NCBI GenBank assembly: GCA_038046605.1
Contig: JBBSVW010000026.1
Coordinates: 1-23,270, forward strand
Source of the DNA: Candidatus Micrarchaeota archaeon
GTDB taxonomy: Archaea; Micrarchaeota; Micrarchaeia; Norongarragalinales; SBBD01
DNA length: 23,270 bases
Direction: 5' to 3'
Position numbers and translations under genes: made by a program. Under the pieces are notes generated by a model, which worked only from the letters and a program-made list of their open reading frames with translations, did no database searches and had not been told where the DNA came from. Shown here one piece after another: positions 10,843 to 19,515 of the stretch. How positions within the stretch are numbered: position 1 is the stretch's first letter; each line of letters opens with the position of its first letter.

Positions 10843-10948
10843 GCAGGGGTGGCAGAGATTCCCGCAAGGGGACTGCAACTTGGTCAAATGCGCAGGGCTT
10901 AGGACCCTGTGCCTTAGGGCTGCAAGGGTTCAAATCCCTTCCCCTGCA
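10843..10948 (+). tRNA. tRNA-Leu(TAG) with a 21-nt D-loop intron (10858-10878, position 15/16)
   Basis: Acceptor GCAGGGG/CCCCTGC + A73; anticodon arm CAGGG-CTTAGGA-CCCTG; long variable arm; T arm AAGGG-TTCAAAT-CCCTT. Mature length is 85 nt after removing the intron. Confidence 0.93.
10858..10878 (+). other. tRNA-Leu non-canonical intron (BHB/BHL type)
   Basis: 4-bp helix GCAG(10852-55)/CTGC(10873-76) with 3-nt bulges AG|A and AA|C; inner stem TTCCC-GCAA-GGGGA with a GNRA loop. Confidence 0.88.
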
Positions 10949-11105: not shown

Positions 11106-12635
11106 TCAAAGCTTGGGGAACATCGCCTTTCTGTGCTGTTCCCGGTCAACTTCCTCCCTTGCAAGCGGCTGCTTCTTTTCCCCGGATCCCATCACAGTGC
11201 GGATATCCATCTCCTTGTTGTGGATGCCCCCGCTCCCGCCCTTCTTCCTGAATTTGACGATGTAAATCACGACTCCAATCAAGGTGGCAAGGACGACGAC
11301 AATCGCTACAGTTGTTGTCAAATCCAGCTCGTTTTGCCTTGAAGGAAGGCCAAGGGCGCGCCGGCCAATATCAATGAATTTGGCCTCAAGTTTTGCGAGC
11401 TCCGCAACAGTGACTACCGAATTGTTTGAAAGCCGTTTGTTTACATCATCCATTTCCGAACGGACAGATTTATGTTCGTTTGTTAGGTCGATTACGCGGG
11501 TATCATTTGCGGTATATTTTAACGCTGCAGCATCAATTGCCGCTTTAGCGTATTTTTCAGCCGATACGGTTTTGTTGTATGAAAACAAAAGACCATTTGG
11601 ATCGTCTATTATCGCTGCAAGTTCCCCATAACGCGTGTTCATGGTATTGAAATTATTGGAAGCGCCCTCGAAAGTGCTCGAATTCTTCAATTTTTCATAG
11701 GCTGCCTCAATTTCCTTGTATTTTGCATCAATTGGGGCGAATTTGACCGGCACAACCGATGTCTTGTTGATCGCCTTTTCCAGCACCTCCCTTCCCTGCA
11801 CCTGGAGCTCCTTGATTTTAAGCACATCCTTCCTTGAATTGTAGATTCGGATGATATCCAAGGCCTCCGTATTGATATCAGTGATCTTGTCCCTATAAGC
11901 CTCCCCGGATAGGCGGATTACCTCGTCCACATAGCCGTATTTGAATGCGCAGAATGGATCTTTTTCCATTGTCTTTCCAAGGAAATAGGCATAGCCAACG
12001 CCCGCATCGTCAAAATAAACCGTTTCGTTTTTAGCCTTTGTTCCCGCAATGTTTATTTGGGAAAGGGCGTCCCCTATCTGCTCCCTGCTTGCTGCCGTTT
12101 TCAGGAGCTGGATTTTTTCATCGTAAACATCCCACGATTCCTTCATGCGCTTCCGTTGGGCAAATACTGCATCGCAAACCCTGCCGGTTGAGGCATCAAC
12201 ACAACGGAACTGAGCCCAGAAGAAATTGGTTTCAACAAGGTCATAGAAGTAGAAATGGCATTTGTCAAATAGCACTTTTGATTCGTTGTAGTTTCTAAGA
12301 AGATCAGCTTTTGTAGCCTCGGTAAAGCCCGTGGCGCCGCTTTGGAGGTAATAATCCCTCAAAACCGAAACCAAAGTCGCCTCATCGGTTACCGGATCGA
12401 CTTTATCATTGAACACAAGCGAGCTCTTGCCATCTATCAAGACGACATAAAATACCTTCCCTTCGGATGTGTTCAGGATGAAATATTCGGCGCTTTCGCC
12501 CCTAAGCACATATTTCCTTGCCTCATCATCAACGTTTTTCGTTGCGGCATTGGAAAAGGCGGCAATTAGCAGCAAGAACAGCATTGCAAAACCGGCAAAT
12601 TTCATGTTAGTCTTCATAGGGATCACTATTCTCAA
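11106..12635 (-). CDS. Hypothetical surface protein: signal peptide, helical/coiled-coil ectodomain, C-terminal TM anchor (start may be 12617 or 12605)
   Basis: Signal MKFAGFAMLFLLLIAAFSNA; Ala/Glu/Lys-rich helical body; TM VAIVVVLATLIGVVIYIV followed by KFRKK. Confidence 0.85.
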   Translation of the reverse strand: MRIVIPMKTNMKFAGFAMLFLLLIAAFSNAATKNVDDEARKYVLRGESAEYFILNTSEGKVFYVVLIDGKSSLVFNDKVDPVTDEATLVSVLRDYYLQSGATGFTEATKADLLRNYNESKVLFDKCHFYFYDLVETNFFWAQFRCVDASTGRVCDAVFAQRKRMKESWDVYDEKIQLLKTAASREQIGDALSQINIAGTKAKNETVYFDDAGVGYAYFLGKTMEKDPFCAFKYGYVDEVIRLSGEAYRDKITDINTEALDIIRIYNSRKDVLKIKELQVQGREVLEKAINKTSVVPVKFAPIDAKYKEIEAAYEKLKNSSTFEGASNNFNTMNTRYGELAAIIDDPNGLLFSYNKTVSAEKYAKAAIDAAALKYTANDTRVIDLTNEHKSVRSEMDDVNKRLSNNSVVTVAELAKLEAKFIDIGRRALGLPSRQNELDLTTTVAIVVVLATLIGVVIYIVKFRKKGGSGGIHNKEMDIRTVMGSGEKKQPLAREEVDREQHRKAMFPKL

Positions 12636-12715: not shown

Positions 12716-14041
12716 TTATTCAAGTAAGGGATTTGCAACTTTCCCCATGAAGAGAATGACGCCGGTTGCCTTCTCCTGGATAAGGAAGATGAAGGGATGG
12801 TCGGCCTTGAATTCGGGAATGTATTGGGGCATTATTGCGGTTATGCCAACAACAATGCCAGTTGCAGCGGCGGCCTCAGTGCCTTCCTCATTAACCTCGA
12901 CAAACGCCTTGTGGTATGCTCCAGTTACTGAAAGGCCAAGGGTACCATCAATACCCGAAAGATCTGCACCCTCAGAAAATACGTCCCCGACACCCATGGC
13001 CATCAAATTCTCCTTTAATGAATAGCCGTCATCAAACTTGAATTTGGGGAAGATGAGGTCGATGCGGCGCTGGCTCATTCCAGATTTCCATTGGCCCAAC
13101 TTCTCAACAGTCAAGCTGCGCTCAAGACCAGCCAATTCACCATCCTTCGGAAGCAATACTAGCATGGAAAGCGAATCGCCCTTGTAGGGCATTTCAAGGA
13201 CCTGCAGCTGTTCATTTTCCATGTAATTAAACACGGCATCCTTGTCGTTCCGGTACATATATTGGGCTTTGGCCTTTTGCCCTCCCTCCAATCTGAATTC
13301 GCCTTCCAACGTATCCTTCTTATCAAATGCTTTTATCCAAGTGCCCTTGAAATAGATGGCATTGGCAATAACCAACCTAGTGCCAAAGTCAACTGATCCT
13401 TGTGGAAGCAAATCAACTATCTTATCGTTGGTTTTTTCTTCCACCCAATCATTTATCGTGTTTCTGGAACCCTCAGCATTGTTCTTGAAATCAACATTGC
13501 GAATTTCGCTCCCATAAAAATCAGATGCGGTTGCCTTGTAGGCGTTTAGGATGGGGTAGGTTTTTTCTATCCAAAGTGAATTTGCAACGCTTAGTTTGTA
13601 GGCTTCATTCCTGGCATTAAGCCTCGTATTGAGGTCCTTGAACCCGTTTTGCCTTATAGCGGAATCAGGATCAAGCCCAAAAACTCCCTGAAGCTCACTA
13701 GCCGTGATTCCTTTTGCACCCTCAGCCAGGATTGCAAACGCCTCGCTTATGCTGAAAGGTGAGAAAAAGAGGTTTCCGGCTTCCTTATCCTTTATTTGGG
13801 AGTAGAAATCAAATGCGAATTTGTTGTTCGCATCCGCCATTGCCAGGTCGGATGGGGAAATGGAAACAGAAGGAATGGATGTAGGGGATGGAATGGACGT
13901 AGGTATTGGCGTTGAACTTGGAATTATAGTTGCAGAGGGGGAAATTGTTGGAGTTGGGGATGGGATGGGCTGCATTTGATTTGTGCATCCAAATAATAGA
14001 AGCCCGGAAATCAACAAAAGTGCAATTAATGCAAATTTCAT
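12716..14041 (-). CDS. Serpin (serine protease inhibitor), lipoprotein-type signal and Pro/Ser/Thr linker
   Basis: NLFFSPFSIS, INDWVEEKTNDKI, NAIYFKGTW, hinge VNEEGTEAAAAT, FKADHPFIFLI, LFMGKV. Start moved to MKFALIALLLISGLLLFGC (ATG 14041, AGGTGG SD-like sequence upstream). Confidence 0.95.
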   Translation of the reverse strand: MKFALIALLLISGLLLFGCTNQMQPIPSPTPTISPSATIIPSSTPIPTSIPSPTSIPSVSISPSDLAMADANNKFAFDFYSQIKDKEAGNLFFSPFSISEAFAILAEGAKGITASELQGVFGLDPDSAIRQNGFKDLNTRLNARNEAYKLSVANSLWIEKTYPILNAYKATASDFYGSEIRNVDFKNNAEGSRNTINDWVEEKTNDKIVDLLPQGSVDFGTRLVIANAIYFKGTWIKAFDKKDTLEGEFRLEGGQKAKAQYMYRNDKDAVFNYMENEQLQVLEMPYKGDSLSMLVLLPKDGELAGLERSLTVEKLGQWKSGMSQRRIDLIFPKFKFDDGYSLKENLMAMGVGDVFSEGADLSGIDGTLGLSVTGAYHKAFVEVNEEGTEAAAATGIVVGITAIMPQYIPEFKADHPFIFLIQEKATGVILFMGKVANPLLE

Positions 14042-14156
14042 AACCATTCCACCTGCACAAATTAAGGGCGAATTTGTATATATACCATTTTGAAAGGTTA
14101 AAGATTGGCTTAACATCCGATTTTGAGCCTTGTTGCCTATGCGCTTCCCCCCCTTT

Positions 14157-14169
14157 GAAACCTTTAAAA
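14157..14169 (+). promoter_or_regulatory. Putative BRE-TATA promoter of the tRNA-Tyr/tRNA-Asp pair
   Basis: GAAACCTTTAAAA 61 nt before tRNA-Tyr; the same 13-mer occurs at 3471-3483 (-). Confidence 0.55.
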
Positions 14170-14261
14170 AAGAAGGATGGCATAAATCTATTCCATTCCC
14201 GAGAATACAGCATGTCGGGAAGTAGTTAATCCCGCAGTAGCTCAATCTGGCAGAGCGTCTG

Positions 14262-14355
14262 CGAGCCTCTTTTTCTTTCCCAAAAGAAAAAGACCCTCGG
14301 GAGAAAAAGGAAAGGGTTTTTATCTGGAATATGAATAAAAAGAGGTTACGGCGAA
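14262..14355 (+). other. tRNA-Tyr intron 1 (94 nt, position 30/31)
   Basis: BHB: helix CGTC(14256-59)/GGCG(14350-53), bulges TG|C and AA|A, outer AG/CT, inner stem AGCCTCTTTTT/AAAAAGAGGTT. Confidence 0.85.
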
Positions 14356-14362
14356 ACTGTAG

Positions 14363-14423
14363 TTCGGCTGATCTCGGCCTTCTTTAAAAGGAGTGCAAAA
14401 TGAGGTCGAATCGCTTACCAGAT
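14363..14423 (+). other. tRNA-Tyr intron 2 (61 nt, canonical 37/38)
   Basis: Relaxed BHB: CTGT/CCAG (one mismatch), bulges AG|T and AT|A; inner GATCTC/GAGGTC stem. Confidence 0.85.
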
Positions 14424-14445
14424 ATCAGACGGTTGCCAGTTCAAA

Positions 14446-14547
14446 AGGCCTTGCCTTTCTTTTAGTAAAAGAAAGGCGATGGCGCCGCCAAAGAAAACTC
14501 TTTTGCGGCTCCGCCGAATAATATTATTTATCCGGCTGGGCGGAAAA
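14446..14547 (+). other. tRNA-Tyr intron 3 (102 nt, T-loop 59/60)
   Basis: Relaxed BHB: TTCA/GGAA (one mismatch), bulges AA|A and AA|T, outer helix is the T stem. The exact boundary is ambiguous within the A runs, but the length is fixed by a 7-nt T loop. Confidence 0.8.
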
Positions 14548-14604
14548 TCTGGCCTGCGGGATTTTTGCCTTGGTAGTGTAGTGGTCCAGCATAGGGGCTT
14601 GTCG

Positions 14605-14695
14605 TCGAACCTTTTTCTTTTCTCGAAAAGAAAAAGCACTCCGGAAAAAGAAAAGGAAGTGTGTTTCGCGAATTAGAGAAGGAGGTTCTGCAAAC
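14605..14695 (+). other. tRNA-Asp intron 1 (91 nt, canonical 37/38)
   Basis: BHB helix TTGT(14599-602)/GCAA(14690-93), bulges CG|T and AC|A, inner GAACCT/AGGTTC. Confidence 0.88.
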
Positions 14696-14716
14696 AGCCC
14701 TTGACCCGGGTCCGAA

Positions 14717-14796
14717 TGACACAAAGGGGGATGTTTCCCCCTATCGTGTCGCCTTACCCCCTCTTGATTGAAGGGAAAATGGCGTTCATACGGAAA
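14717..14796 (+). other. tRNA-Asp intron 2 (80 nt, T-loop 59/60), containing hairpin element copy D (14717-14762)
   Basis: Helix TCCG(14711-14)/CGGA(14791-94), bulges AA|T and AA|T. The 5' part is TGACAC-aa-AGGGGGA-tgtt-TCCCCCT-atc-GTGTCG-cct-TACCCCC. Confidence 0.85.
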
Positions 14797-14811
14797 TCCC
14801 GGCCAAGGCGC

Positions 14812-14823
14812 TTTTTCTTTTTT
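14812..14823 (+). terminator. Oligo-T archaeal terminator after tRNA-Asp
   Basis: TTTTTCTTTTTT immediately downstream of the discriminator base. Confidence 0.6.
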
Positions 14824-14846
14824 AATAACACTAACCGCTAGTCGGT

Positions 14847-14945
14847 TCAAAACTCAATCGTCTTCCCTTCCTTAGGAATCCTCACATTCTTATGCAGTTC
14901 CTTGAAATCCTCTGCCCGATCCGTGTGAATTGGAATAGCAACAAG
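14847..14945 (-). pseudogene. C-terminal remnant of a probable MBL-fold/beta-CASP (RNase J-like) hydrolase
   Basis: Frame reads LVAIPIHTDRAEDFKELHKNVRIPKEGKTIEF*. IPIHT followed by a V-x-I-P-x-x-G-x-x-I-E-F end resembles that family's C-terminus. There is an in-frame stop upstream at 14979-14981 and no ATG. Confidence 0.5.
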
Positions 14946-14998: not shown

Positions 14999-17080
14999 CT
15001 AAATGGAGTCTTCCATGCGCATTTCGGTTTTATCAATCAGCGGCACAATTATTTTATTTATTTTTTTTATGTAATTTTCGCAAATGCTAACGTCTTCCTT
15101 TGATTGGTTAATAATTCGACCGCTCGATCCGTGCCCATAGGGACCACGAATAAACGATATTTTACTTAAGGCTTGTTGTAATTCGCCTAAGTTTGCAAAT
15201 CCATTAGGTTTAACAAAAATATTTTCAAAACAATCCGTCCAATTATTTTTTTGGGAAATAATATTTATTTCCTGCCCTAGGTCGATAAAATCTTCAAATT
15301 GCCCATTTTCCTTTTTCTTTTTTTCATTTATATAACCTTGAATGTCGCCGGGGATTCTGCTTTTTTCCCATTTTGAATCAATTATTTGTAAAGTATTTCT
15401 TATCATTATACTTATATTTCTTTCAAGATTTTGAATTTTATCGAATATTTCTTCTTCCTCCATGCTCTCCCAGAAACTAACACCAACCTTCCGTTTGATT
15501 TCGACACCAATTTTTTTTGCTAGATCCTTCCTTGCTCCCTCATTGGTAGTACTTAATTTGATTTCCCTTATTGCGGTTTCATCCAATTCCATGAAATATT
15601 CGCCAATTACTTCCACATATTTCGATAATGCCTCTCTTGACGGTATTCGCTCAATATGAGACAAAATGGGTTCAAACAAATAGAGTAATACGGGCACACC
15701 TGCATTACCAAAAACATAATTTCGCGCGTTTTCTTTAGTTATTTTTTCATAGATAGATTTGAAATATCTGCTAATAGTATTTGCAGTCCTATTTCGTTGC
15801 GTCATTTTATTCTCGTCATAAAGGGGGTTATTGATCCCCCTTAAATTTGGAAGCAAATCTCGGGTTATTCTCGAGTTTTTTATACCCGAACAAAATGCAC
15901 TAATGGAAATTGACGATTCTGTTTTTTGCCCTTTTTTTGGAATGTAAATCATGTTTTCAAATGGATTGTTTTTTAAATCTGCAAAATTTGCAGGGGGGGA
16001 ATCTATCATTTTTACAATATTTGAAATTAACCCTTCTTCAGTTTCGCAATACGGATCAGCCTCACCTTCCAAGTCCCAGATTAAATCAGATGAAACAGGT
16101 TTTTGCTCCTTATTAATATCGAGAAATAAACTCCTCTCCTCATTTGGTTTAAGAAGAGTTAATGCTATACAAGGGACTAAATCAGATTGTTTTGCCCGTA
16201 CTGCACCAAATAACCTGTGTTGACCATCAATAACCCAACAATTTTGCCCGGTAATATTCAAAAAAACAAATTCCCAATCTGGTGTTTTTTTATATATTTT
16301 ATAATAATAAGAATCGTTGATGGGACCCCGTAAGGATAAAATAATATTTGATGGAAAATAACCTCCGGTATCAACATATTTCTCTATTCGCTTGAGTTTA
16401 TTTTTTTCGAGAGTCCTCTGATAAAATTCCTCGTCTCCCCGCCCTCTTCTTGCAACATATGATATTTTTATAAGGTCCAATGGATTTGCATAGAAAATAA
16501 AGGCAAAACGCCCACCAAGTTTCGTTTTGATCGCAGGGATTTGAAAAGGTTCACTAATAAAGGGTATATTGGAATATTTTGAAATTTCGTTAAGTATGCT
16601 ATAAACCGCATTTTCCTTAATCTTATCAGATAAATCGTTATAATAATCTAAAAACTGCTCATCGATCAAAAAGATTTTATCGGGACCATTTTGTAAAATT
16701 GTTTCCCCTTGAGGCGTAAGCCCCATTCGTTTTATTGCCAATATGGGAATTATTTTCTCAAAATCTTTGTCTTTTTTATTAGAAAAATGAGTAATTATCG
16801 TATTTACTTTATCCCGCCATTCACGTATTTCACTAACCTGCAATTTCTTTAATTTCCCCCGACTTTTACCAGATTTGCATTCAATAATAAACAAGTTTTT
16901 TCCAAATTTGGCTATGCAATCTATTTCAATTTCTTCCGATGAAATATGTATTGTTTCCTTTGTTTTAACTTCAGAAAAGCCAGCTCTTTCAAATAGACTT
17001 TTAATTTCTATCTCGAAGTTATCTCCAACTTCAACAGAAGATTCCTCATCCTCAACTTGGTCTTCCATGAAATCTACCAT
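14999..17080 (-). CDS. DGQHR (DndB/ParB-like) domain protein with N-terminal PD-(D/E)xK nuclease-like and C-terminal HEPN-like domains
   Basis: N-terminal FE...EIDCIAK...IIECKS; central YQR, FPSNII, VIDGQHRL, LFLDINKEQKPV; C-terminal LE..I..MI..L.....WEK..IP and RGPYGH (Rx4H). Confidence 0.85.
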   Translation of the reverse strand: MVDFMEDQVEDEESSVEVGDNFEIEIKSLFERAGFSEVKTKETIHISSEEIEIDCIAKFGKNLFIIECKSGKSRGKLKKLQVSEIREWRDKVNTIITHFSNKKDKDFEKIIPILAIKRMGLTPQGETILQNGPDKIFLIDEQFLDYYNDLSDKIKENAVYSILNEISKYSNIPFISEPFQIPAIKTKLGGRFAFIFYANPLDLIKISYVARRGRGDEEFYQRTLEKNKLKRIEKYVDTGGYFPSNIILSLRGPINDSYYYKIYKKTPDWEFVFLNITGQNCWVIDGQHRLFGAVRAKQSDLVPCIALTLLKPNEERSLFLDINKEQKPVSSDLIWDLEGEADPYCETEEGLISNIVKMIDSPPANFADLKNNPFENMIYIPKKGQKTESSISISAFCSGIKNSRITRDLLPNLRGINNPLYDENKMTQRNRTANTISRYFKSIYEKITKENARNYVFGNAGVPVLLYLFEPILSHIERIPSREALSKYVEVIGEYFMELDETAIREIKLSTTNEGARKDLAKKIGVEIKRKVGVSFWESMEEEEIFDKIQNLERNISIMIRNTLQIIDSKWEKSRIPGDIQGYINEKKKKENGQFEDFIDLGQEINIISQKNNWTDCFENIFVKPNGFANLGELQQALSKISFIRGPYGHGSSGRIINQSKEDVSICENYIKKINKIIVPLIDKTEMRMEDSI

Positions 17081-17451
17081 ATAATTTTCTTTTTAATAAA
17101 CGTATCTATTTGATGTTCCCATATGCGGATTACCCTCCAGCCAACTTTCTTTAGCCGCATTGTCTTTTCTTTATCCCGTTCAACATTCCTTTTCAATTTT
17201 GGGACCCAATATTTGCGGTTGCTTTTTGGGATATGACCGTGCTTAGGACAGTTATGCCAAAAGCATCCATCAATGAATATTGCTGTTTTTTTGGATGGAA
17301 TGGCAATGTCGATTTTTTCCTTGCCGTAATGAAGGCGATATTTGACCCCTGATTTCCTCAAGATTGCTCGAAACAGTTTTTCGGGTAGGGTATGCTTTGA
17401 CTTTATCGCGGACATTATTTTTGAACGTATTTTCTTTTTTACAGGATCCAT
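17074..17451 (-). CDS. vsr: Very short patch repair endonuclease
   Basis: MD......RSKIMSAIKSKHTLPE, IDIA, FIDGCFWHNCPKH, YWVPKLKRNVERD, GWRVIRIWEH. Start set at ATG 17451; the stop overlaps the DGQHR gene start (ATGGTAG). Confidence 0.95.
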   Translation of the reverse strand: MDPVKKKIRSKIMSAIKSKHTLPEKLFRAILRKSGVKYRLHYGKEKIDIAIPSKKTAIFIDGCFWHNCPKHGHIPKSNRKYWVPKLKRNVERDKEKTMRLKKVGWRVIRIWEHQIDTFIKKKIIW

Positions 17452-17458
17452 CCCCCAT

Positions 17459-18331
17459 TCACTTCTCGAATACCGATTCGATGAGCTTGTCAATTTTTGG
17501 GATCGTAGTATCCATTTTCACGCTTTGTTCAAATAGCCCCTTTGATGCCGTATGCAGCCTAAGGCTTAGGGTCAGCCCATTATCGAAATTAATCAATATT
17601 GTGCTATTGCTTGCTCTTGTTATTTCCATATGATCTGGCATGGGGATATTTGTAAAATCAATGATCTCGACTTTATGGGCAGAATTCTTGACCATGTAAA
17701 ACGGGATAGTGCCAGTTAAAAAATGGAAAAAGGTAGGCGCGCTGCTTTTGTTCAAATTCAAAAAATCCATAACCAATTTGGTCAGGGGGAAATACAATTT
17801 CTTATTTATAAACTCCATATCTTTGTTTTTTATCTCCTCGAAAGTCTTTGCTGCTGGGAATGATTTTTTTGCTTCAAGGTAAAACTTGGACCAAATCCCT
17901 TCATATTGCAAATCATATTTAGCCAATACGCGGGAGTCATTTACACCACATTGCTCAGGCAGCCTCGTCAGCCTCGGGTGCTTTAGCGCGGGATAGTTAT
18001 TTTTTATGGAAAGATTGATTGAGCGGCCATTGCTAAAAGCTAAACGTATATCGGTAGGGTCCCCAGTCACACCACTGCTATCTGGCAGCCTATCAAGAAT
18101 TACCTTGATTTTTCGGCTGCCAATTTTTTTCTCCAACCAACGGACAGTTATCTCCGCACACTTTGAAAAATTTTCCCTTATTTTATCACTTAATCTAGAG
18201 TAATACTTCTCGTCAACTGCATTGTCCTTTTTTGCCCGTTCAGTCAAATCGCATTTTTCAAAGTGCGCCAGTATTTCCTTGCAGATGATGTATTCCAATG
18301 TTCTTCCGTTATCATCAGATGCGGTTGGCAT
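17459..18331 (-). CDS. Type II restriction endonuclease, HaeIII family (predicted GGCC)
   Basis: SDDNGRTLEY, DSSGVTGDPTDI, LSIKNNYPALKHPRL and LRLHTAS resemble HaeIII-family motifs; divergent from a HaeIII-like MTase. Start set at ATG 18331. Confidence 0.8.
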   Translation of the reverse strand: MPTASDDNGRTLEYIICKEILAHFEKCDLTERAKKDNAVDEKYYSRLSDKIRENFSKCAEITVRWLEKKIGSRKIKVILDRLPDSSGVTGDPTDIRLAFSNGRSINLSIKNNYPALKHPRLTRLPEQCGVNDSRVLAKYDLQYEGIWSKFYLEAKKSFPAAKTFEEIKNKDMEFINKKLYFPLTKLVMDFLNLNKSSAPTFFHFLTGTIPFYMVKNSAHKVEIIDFTNIPMPDHMEITRASNSTILINFDNGLTLSLRLHTASKGLFEQSVKMDTTIPKIDKLIESVFEK

Positions 18332-18501
18332 AAGCCTCAACAGGGTATATTCTCCCGCGGTTTTTATTCGTATTGCTTGAAATCGCGATTTGTGGGGGGG
18401 ATCAAATACCACCAGAAATGACCTCCCGCAATGTACTTAAATAGGATAAACCCTCAAAATAAGTATGAGGTCGAGTGTGGGGGATGAAAAAGGCGCATAC
18501 A

Positions 18502-19515
18502 ATGAAAGTAATATCTTTGTTTACTGGCTGCGGCGGCTTAGACCTGGGTTTCGAACATGCAGGGTTCGAAATAGCTTATGCTAATGATTATGACCCTGTG
18601 ATGAAGGATACCTTTGAAAAGAACCATAGCGTCGAATTGGACCTTAGATCCATTGTCAATGTGAAATCTGACGAGATACCTGATGCTGAAGGCATAATTG
18701 GTGGCCCTCCCTGCCAAAGCTGGAGCCTTGCAGGTGCCATGAGGGGCATTGAAGATCAGCGGGGGCAATTATTTTACGAATATATCCGCATCCTAAAAGA
18801 TAAGCAACCCTTGTTCTTTGTTGCGGAAAATGTGCCCGGCATCGTTTCAACAACGCATATTGGCGAATTCACGAAAATATTGGAAAAATTCAGCAGCCTT
18901 GGCTATAATGTCAATTATGCCATCCTTGATGCACGGAATTATGGTGTGCCACAAGAAAGAAAGAGAGTTGTTGTTGTCGGATATCATAAGAAATTGGGAA
19001 AAACCTTTGCATTCCCCGAACCCAATAGCAAATGGATTACCCTTAAAGAAGCGATAGGGGATTTGCCAGATGCTAAACCAGCCAAGGAAAAAAACAAAAC
19101 AAATGGCGAATTAGGAATTGCTAACCAGGAATACATGAATGGAGGTTTCTCAACAATGTACTTGTCCCGAAATAGGCGCAGGGAATGGGGGGAACAGTCA
19201 TTTACCATCCAAGCTGGAGGCAGGCATGCACCACTTCATCCAAGCTCCTCAAAGATGAGGAAGGTTGAGGAAGACAAATGGGTTTTTGATGGCGACAACC
19301 CTAAATACCGCAGAATGTCAGTTCGTGAATGTGCCAGGATTCAAACTTTCCCAGATGATTTCATTTTCTACTACAACAACATTGCCGATGGCTACAAGAT
19401 GATAGGGAATGCTGTGCCAGTAAAGCTTGCGGAAGCGGTAGCAAAACAGATAATGTCAGATCTATCAAAGACCGATGTAGCAAAGGACACGCAAAAAATA
19501 AAAATTATCAATTAA
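18502..19515 (+). CDS. dcm: C5-cytosine DNA methyltransferase, M.HaeIII-like
   Basis: SLFTGCGG (motif I), GGPPCQSWS (IV), ENV (VI), QERKRV (VIII), RECARIQTFP, IGNAVP. The target-recognition region FSTMYLSRNRRREW..QSFTIQAGGRHAPLHP resembles M.HaeIII. Start could also be 18484. Confidence 0.95.
   Translation: MKVISLFTGCGGLDLGFEHAGFEIAYANDYDPVMKDTFEKNHSVELDLRSIVNVKSDEIPDAEGIIGGPPCQSWSLAGAMRGIEDQRGQLFYEYIRILKDKQPLFFVAENVPGIVSTTHIGEFTKILEKFSSLGYNVNYAILDARNYGVPQERKRVVVVGYHKKLGKTFAFPEPNSKWITLKEAIGDLPDAKPAKEKNKTNGELGIANQEYMNGGFSTMYLSRNRRREWGEQSFTIQAGGRHAPLHPSSSKMRKVEEDKWVFDGDNPKYRRMSVRECARIQTFPDDFIFYYNNIADGYKMIGNAVPVKLAEAVAKQIMSDLSKTDVAKDTQKIKIIN

Follow-up and report, generated by a model that had tools for sequence, protein, structure and literature searches.

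Can a tRNA gene work when its anticodon lies on an exon of only seven nucleotides (nt) and 257 of its 331 nt are intronic, and in what order could its introns be removed? The question is raised by positions 14231-14561 (forward strand) of the window, i.e. the whole 23,270-nt contig analysed here (JBBSVW010000026.1 of GenBank assembly GCA_038046605.1), from a probable member of the Micrarchaeota. A first-pass annotation had read this locus as tRNA-Tyr, interrupted by three introns and with its anticodon on a 7-nt micro-exon, and the reading stands: splicing by script at the exon and intron borders it gave, every one of which holds (Table 1), joins four exons into a tRNA of 74 nt that ARAGORN recognizes as tRNA-Tyr(gta), with a full cloverleaf and every stem intact. 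The junction of intron 3 can slide by up to 3 nt leftward (to 56/57) with the product unchanged, because there are runs of A on both sides. The spliced tRNA carries the anticodon GUA, C1:G72 and the discriminator A73, which are identity elements for the archaeal/eukaryal tyrosyl-tRNA synthetase, and two class Ib synthetase genes are encoded in the same genome. We hold it to be quite likely that the locus is a functional tRNA-Tyr(GUA) gene, the only one found so far in this genome, with three protein-spliced introns (by EndA and RtcB) of which intron 1 is preferentially removed before intron 2.

Table 1. Exons and introns of the tRNA-Tyr gene and the features directly downstream of it (positions in the window).
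Feature	Position	Strand	Length	Remarks
tRNA-Tyr exon 1	14231-14261	+	31 nt	tRNA nt 1-30: acceptor 5' strand, D-arm, anticodon-stem nt 27-30; kept in 19/19 genes
tRNA-Tyr intron 1	14262-14355	+	94 nt	position 30/31; copy of module family 1 at 14265-14320
tRNA-Tyr exon 2 (micro-exon ACTGTAG)	14356-14362	+	7 nt	tRNA nt 31-37, including anticodon GUA
tRNA-Tyr intron 2	14363-14423	+	61 nt	canonical position 37/38; relaxed motif, 3/4 central pairs
tRNA-Tyr exon 3	14424-14445	+	22 nt	tRNA nt 38-59
tRNA-Tyr intron 3	14446-14547	+	102 nt	T-loop position 59/60; copy of module family 3 at 14448-14521
tRNA-Tyr exon 4	14548-14561	+	14 nt	tRNA nt 60-73; discriminator A last; CCA not encoded
T5 spacer, tRNA-Tyr to tRNA-Asp	14562-14566	+		read from the sequence; terminator or processed spacer both conceivable
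tRNA-Asp(GUC)	14567-14810	+		spliced 73 nt, tRNA-Asp by ARAGORN
tRNA-Asp intron	14605-14695		91 nt	position 37/38; module family 1
tRNA-Asp intron	14717-14796		80 nt	position 59/60

Conservation of the gene and its detection

Orthologues were sought by a DNA search of 40 relatives in which matches to exon 1 were retrieved, and 19 genes could be parsed, the window's own and 18 orthologues. The mature tRNA-Tyr is 74 nt long and carries C1:G72 in every one of them; standard pairs fill 398 of the 399 stem cells, with double-sided compensatory changes at 9 of the 21 stem pairs, and the micro-exon ACTGTAG is invariant (19/19) despite the divergence of the introns that flank it. Inside the genus, identity to the window's gene is 96-100% in the exons (mature sequence) and 21-84% in the introns. 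Given that the 18 orthologues all yield a 74-nt tRNA-Tyr with paired and compensated stems, the gene is not a chance pattern. Nor is its layout an artefact of one assembly, since contigs from runs of two other studies match positions 14313-14557 and 14299-14450 with zero differences. No joint was seen inside tRNA-Tyr in the contigs of four DNA runs; these contigs break off or accumulate at the modules inside the introns (described below), and none of those listed spans the whole gene. The tRNA-Tyr gene is real, conserved and well explained by known machinery, and from its structure and conservation we infer that it is expressed and spliced.

The first-pass annotation had also proposed looking for another tRNA-Tyr elsewhere in the genome; none was found in the 90.7%-complete assembly by Rfam, ARAGORN or BLAST of the spliced sequence. 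Apart from its own locus, BLAST gave one weak match (C30:1676-1705), which we rejected as a tRNA-Tyr, as it belongs to a tRNA-Phe(GAA) gene interrupted by an intron in its T-loop. We also scanned generically for anticodon arms that hold GUA and an intron at 37/38, and dropped this approach as uninformative (1367 matches). Among the relatives with parsed genes, 13 have a single match to exon 1 each, and G028 and G037 add a weaker second one. The gene is probably essential.

Both tRNA finders that were run, ARAGORN and Rfam/Infernal, miss tRNA-Tyr, each finding only the tRNA-Leu at 10864 in the window, as had been anticipated in the first-pass annotation, which suspected that standard annotation may overlook the gene. 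The neighbouring tRNA-Asp in its unspliced form is missed by both as well. In the whole 1.64-Mb assembly the Rfam tRNA model has 16 matches and ARAGORN, with its intron option, reports 21 tRNA genes, none of them Tyr. Because only 16-21 are found in a genome that is 90.7% complete, most of its tRNA genes are probably interrupted in ways that ARAGORN and Rfam cannot read. The sole tRNA-Tyr gene found and its tRNA-Asp neighbour being invisible to both finders, and the finders detecting so few tRNA genes, inferences about genome quality and codon usage in such archaea can go wrong.

Splice motifs, enzymes and the order of intron removal

The intron borders were examined as bulge-helix-bulge (BHB) motifs, in a register where a strand consists of outer helix, four central pairs, three-base bulge and outer helix, with the cut after the second base of the bulge. 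All three introns have the relaxed BHB form and none the strict one. The motif of intron 1 (henceforth motif 1, and so on for the others) has four of four central base pairs and both 3-nt bulges in all nine genes of the window's taxonomic family. Its central helix pairs C25, G26, U27 and C28 with GGCG or GACG at the 3' end of the intron, where the last hexamer is GGCGAA in the window and G(A/G)CGAA in 9/9 family genes, the rest of the intron being variable. The enzymes that such motifs call for are encoded in the genome. There is a single EndA gene (C20:292-1458, 388 amino acids, two endonuclease domains) that matches PDB 4FZ2 over its full length (E 3.5e-126), and an RtcB ligase (E 2.4e-171). 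The 4FZ2 structure is that of the epsilon2 EndA of ARMAN-2, which is described as cutting both strict and relaxed motifs in a host with 56% of its tRNA genes disrupted (PMC3239211, PMC3488258). By analogy, the relaxed motifs of tRNA-Tyr would fit a broad-specificity endonuclease of the epsilon2 type. The EndA match is also the one indication obtained here that the host belongs to the Micrarchaeota.

Motif 1 draws on nucleotides that are needed elsewhere, taking A23, G24 and C25 from the D-stem and U27 and C28 from the anticodon stem. As already pointed out in the first-pass annotation, the CT of exon 2 is used twice: C32 and U33 belong both to the outer helix of motif 1 and to the central helix of motif 2, in which they pair with the 3' end of intron 2. 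Likewise, U27 and C28 are common to the central helix of motif 1 and to the anticodon stem, which is the outer helix of motif 2. Since the same nucleotides are used by both, motif 1 cannot coexist with motif 2, and neither can it coexist with the D-stem and anticodon stem of the cloverleaf.

This mutual exclusion was explored with folding models, in which the free-energy cost of forcing each motif was computed against the full ensemble for each splice state. With the three introns present, the modelled cost in the window gene is 9.8 kcal/mol for motif 1, 8.4 for motif 2 and 5.2 for motif 3; over the splice states it ranges over 6.4-9.8, 1.6-8.4 and 5.0-6.2 kcal/mol respectively, the cost of motif 3 being independent of the other introns. 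No BHB motif is the dominant modelled fold of the precursor, although dominance is not what makes a structure a BHB motif, however relevant it is to the mechanism. In all nine orthologues that have both anticodon-arm introns, motif 2 costs 7.7-15.7 kcal/mol before and 1.3-6.1 kcal/mol after removal of intron 1, and in the two-intron precursor forcing motif 1 costs 3.6-10.6 kcal/mol less than forcing motif 2 in seven of these nine. For the family as a whole, the models support a preferred route in which intron 1 leaves before intron 2 and intron 3 independently of both; for the window copy they are equivocal. From the modelled costs we infer that intron 1 more likely leaves ahead of intron 2, as a preference rather than a structural necessity.

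The likely course of events would start with transcription of the locus into a precursor some 331 nt long. Its three motifs would be cut by the genome's one EndA, of the epsilon2 type, and RtcB would join the exons into the 74-nt tRNA, to which CCA would be added afterwards. Between cuts the precursor would have to refold, because motif 1 excludes the D-stem, the anticodon stem and motif 2; removal of intron 1 would ease the formation of motif 2, and intron 3 would leave on its own.

The order is the part of this reading most open to debate. The same gene with the same introns might have no preferred order at all, EndA cutting whichever relaxed motif happens to form first, which we regard as a serious possibility even if not the probable one. 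In the two-intron precursor of the window gene the two motifs tie (8.4 vs 8.4 kcal/mol), G005 is close to a tie (motif 1 at 8.3 vs motif 2 at 7.9), and without the requirement for an outer helix the cheaper one in the window gene is actually motif 2 (3.7 vs 5.1 kcal/mol). The first-pass annotation had stated that the anticodon stem needed by intron 2 exists only once intron 1 is gone, and this does not agree with the models: in the full precursor, the fold predicted to have the lowest energy joins 27-30 to 40-43 and leaves intron 1 as a protruding hairpin. Four of the five pairs of the anticodon stem are thus possible before intron 1 has gone, which does not oblige intron 2 to wait. The stronger claim of the first-pass annotation, an obligatory order, is not supported, given that the window's motifs tie and the support comes from seven of nine orthologues. 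Moreover, endonucleases of the ARMAN type are reported to cut motifs lacking one bulge or one helix (PMC3239211, PMC3488258, PMC4033280). Further modelled results that weigh against an order, or against motif 1 itself, are that this motif is never the favoured fold, that it is not favoured in a nascent transcript ending just past exon 2 either (cost 3.2-11.6 kcal/mol, the window gene being at 11.6), and that it becomes easier after loss of intron 2 in G003 (5.1 to 0.7 kcal/mol) and G004 (4.6 to 0.5). What speaks against a free order is the advantage of motif 1 in most orthologues and the relief of motif 2 by removal of intron 1 in all nine, together with the behaviour of the three-intron tRNA-Ile(UAU) of the red alga C. 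merolae, where the 37/38 intron is described as the last to be removed (PMC3728597).

Two other explanations would deny that the locus is a spliced gene. It might be a decaying pseudogene overrun by repeats, with a working tRNA-Tyr in the unassembled 9% of the genome, and the dispersed repeat modules in introns 1 and 3 would suit that idea; the incompleteness of the assembly and the blank DNA search in G001 and G002, both of the same genus, leave the absence of a second copy not proven. Decay is nevertheless hard to reconcile with exons nearly identical in five genus genomes while the introns have diverged, with compensated stems, with conserved intron 3' ends that build the motifs, or with the three-intron layout of 5/5 genus genes, including that of G003 (an assembly of 7 contigs with a single match to exon 1), and we consider it very improbable. 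Alternatively, the inserts could be DNA insertions resembling miniature inverted-repeat transposable elements (MITEs), removed in some other way or not at all. The modules do occur in both orientations, whole elements form long, imperfect palindromes whose ends are inverted, and the splice motifs are minority folds in the models. Against the main reading itself also stands the geometry of the motifs: the outer helix of motif 1 has only 2 base pairs (G24:C32 and A23:U33); its inner helix is interrupted, within the genus by a mismatch at the second pair; motifs 2 and 3 are relaxed, with three of four central pairs each in the window gene; and in the 59/60 register motif 3 forms only one or two of four pairs in three of the four genus orthologues, L004 forming all four. 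All the same, the inserts sit exactly where 3-nt bulges and a helix of 3 to 4 base pairs can form, at sites that we take to be archaeal tRNA intron positions (37/38 and the T-loop being the ones confirmed from the literature). In four family genomes intron 1 is short (17-39 nt), lacks the module and forms near-canonical motifs; genes for RtcB and for the appropriate type of EndA are present; and no result suggests another removal system, all of which makes a MITE-like origin of the inserts hardly credible as a substitute for splicing. A gene with three BHB introns is the reading retained in what follows.

The gene is well supported as one more instance of the multiply interrupted tRNA genes already known from archaea, and it calls for no new mechanism. 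The first-pass annotation assigned triple-intron tRNAs mainly to the Thermoproteales, a view that is out of date. Genes with multiple introns, up to three, are indeed described from this order, and they are listed also for ARMAN-1/2, Korarchaeum and others (PMC4033280); they have been reported from Asgard archaea too, and a three-intron tRNA is described from C. merolae (PMC3728597). Nested introns with ordered motif formation have likewise been published (Sugahara 2007, Tocchini-Valentini 2009, as cited in PMC3728597 and PMC3978253). The nested pre-tRNAs of Thermoproteales (Sugahara 2007, 2008; Tocchini-Valentini 2009, via PMC3728597, PMC3978253 and PMC4033280) resemble the present case, as described there, in the broad specificity of the host endonuclease and in that some motifs form only once another intron has been processed. 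They differ in that the host here is a probable member of the Micrarchaeota with an epsilon2 EndA and not an (alpha-beta)2 enzyme, that the introns are long (61-102 nt) because of the repeat modules inside them, and that two motifs exclude each other here, which is not a demonstrated strict nesting.

Another archaeal parallel is ARMAN-2 (Candidatus Micrarchaeum acidiphilum), with the same type of EndA and many tRNA genes described as disrupted at non-canonical positions including the T-loop, some with more than one intron (PMC3239211, PMC3488258). Unlike the window gene, the main-text descriptions in these papers have two introns in one T-loop and neither a three-intron gene nor a 30/31 plus 37/38 micro-exon. 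In the arrangement of its three introns the gene is also like the tRNA-Ile(UAU) of C. merolae (Soma 2013, PMC3728597), where one lies in the 5' part, one at 37/38 and one in the T-loop, and where reverse transcription PCR is described as revealing an ordered removal that follows motif stability. The alga differs in being a eukaryote, in having its first intron in the D-stem, and in that its motifs fold independently and are stated to be non-nested (PMC3728597). A literature search combining Micrarchaeota and tRNA introns turned up no paper on such genes. The window gene offers a natural substrate on which to see how an epsilon2 endonuclease handles mutually exclusive motifs, and whether refolding enforces an order.

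Intron history and the repeat modules

The distribution of the introns among the 19 genes gives an unusually clean stepwise record of intron gain. The intron at 37/38 is present in all of them, the one at 30/31 only in the window's family (9/9 inside, 0/10 outside), and the one at 59/60 in the genus (5/5) and in 3/10 genes outside the family (G028, G024 and G017). Across the family genes the 30/31 intron is 17-106 nt long: the four family genomes of other genera have a short hairpin of 17-39 nt, G004 has 31 nt, and the window, G003, G005 and G006 have 92-106 nt, their added length being the repeat module. The neighbouring tRNA-Asp carries the same module in its own 37/38 intron, including in relatives where intron 1 of tRNA-Tyr is still short. 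Most simply, a short 30/31 intron that already existed would have received a copy of the module. The history would then have begun with an old 37/38 intron, to which a short 30/31 intron was added in one family and later enlarged by the module, T-loop introns being added in the genus and, separately, elsewhere.

The modules fall into two separate families. The one in intron 3 (family 3) is 96% identical over 72 nt to the T-loop intron of a tRNA gene on contig C73 and has relatives at about 20 loci of the genome by nhmmer, which replaced a loose regular expression whose 1218 matches were mostly noise. Among the 12 loci for which flanks are shown, those on C73, C75, C30 and C1 lie in whole tRNA genes of other identity, and those on C61, C70, C27, C62 and C106 next to pieces of tRNA T-arm or acceptor. 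The hosts are T-loop introns of tRNA-Leu, Asn, Phe and others, and there are further copies in genus, family and order relatives. The module of intron 1 (family 1) occurs in introns of tRNA-Asp and tRNA-Cys as well. Some introns carry two inverted module copies and would fold as one long hairpin. Near-identical introns in unrelated tRNA genes have been described in Thermoproteales as intron transposition (PMC4033280). The present case is similar in that like intron sequences are found in non-orthologous tRNA genes, and different in that what they share is a 50-75-nt module, which is also found inside older introns.

Both families share one layout, a pyrimidine run, a purine run that pairs with it, a small hairpin and another purine run. 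The hairpin stem of family 3 covaries (GGC/GCC, GC/GC, GGTGC/GCGCC, CGGC/GCTG) around a conserved loop of nine bases. The second purine run is a mirror repeat in 16 of the 38 family-3 copies and a direct repeat in none, 17 being symmetric and 5 unparsed; the corresponding figures for the 14 family-1 copies are 8, 0, 4 and 2. Informative copies of both families thus stand at 24 mirror and 0 direct over several run patterns, all of them related copies and not independent events. The copy in the window's intron 1 is one of the two unparsed family-1 rows, and its mirror layout was read by eye.

The order of these blocks is that of the class II intrastrand triplex motif described from prokaryotic genomes (Holder et al. 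2015, PMC4666352). Unlike that motif, the modules have a hairpin of 8-19 nt as their second spacer, vs a loop of 1-6 nt in the description (PMC4666352), and they sit in tRNA introns. Triplexes of the purine motif are stated not to form in RNA (PMC4666352). At E up to 5, Rfam gave only chance-level matches on 14150-14900 and no family for the modules, and a literature search turned up no paper tying tRNA introns to triplex motifs. It is conceivable, if unlikely, that the modules are more than inert filling and represent mobile, order-wide elements of the intrastrand-triplex type that colonise tRNA introns as safe havens and enlarge them, with their spread or the stability of the excised introns perhaps depending on non-B DNA or on an opposite-strand U.A-U RNA triplex. 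If so, the introns of tRNA genes in this lineage would be home to structured mobile elements of a new kind.

The neighbouring tRNA-Asp and flanking genes

The 5' end of tRNA-Asp adjoins tRNA-Tyr in 13 of the 19 Tyr loci, in relatives of the same genus, family and order. In the window the T-loop of the spliced tRNA-Asp (14711-14717) reads TCCGAAT, with a C in place of the near-universal U55. The same C55 is found in G006, which has the T-loop intron, and the T-loop is TTCGAAT in G003 and G005, which lack that intron; in the distant loci L021 and L022 the T-loop intron is present and T55 is kept. With C55 the central helix of the splice motif is perfect, TCCG pairing with CGGA, and TCCGA is also seen in two other tRNA genes with T-loop introns (C61 near 9140 and C70 near 12260). 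Within the 37/38 intron of tRNA-Asp (at 14607-14688) a low-depth contig of DNA run X1 swaps 80 nt for 24 other letters, and contigs of X4 and X6 diverge from the window right past 14604/14605, the border between exon and intron. Intron content thus differs among co-occurring or related populations.

On the other side, tRNA-Tyr is adjoined by an open reading frame (ORF) of 509 amino acids on the reverse strand (12716-14245) that encodes a complete Serpin domain (E 8.5e-119). The TTG listed as its start overlaps tRNA-Tyr by 15 nt, so that translation probably begins further in. Another ORF of 509 amino acids lies just upstream on the same strand (11106-12635) and has no Pfam match. Directly downstream of the tRNA pair, positions 14999-19515 encode a DndB-like protein (a weak match, below the Pfam cut-off), a restriction endonuclease of the HaeIII type and a C-5 cytosine methyltransferase, which probably form a restriction-modification or defence islet.

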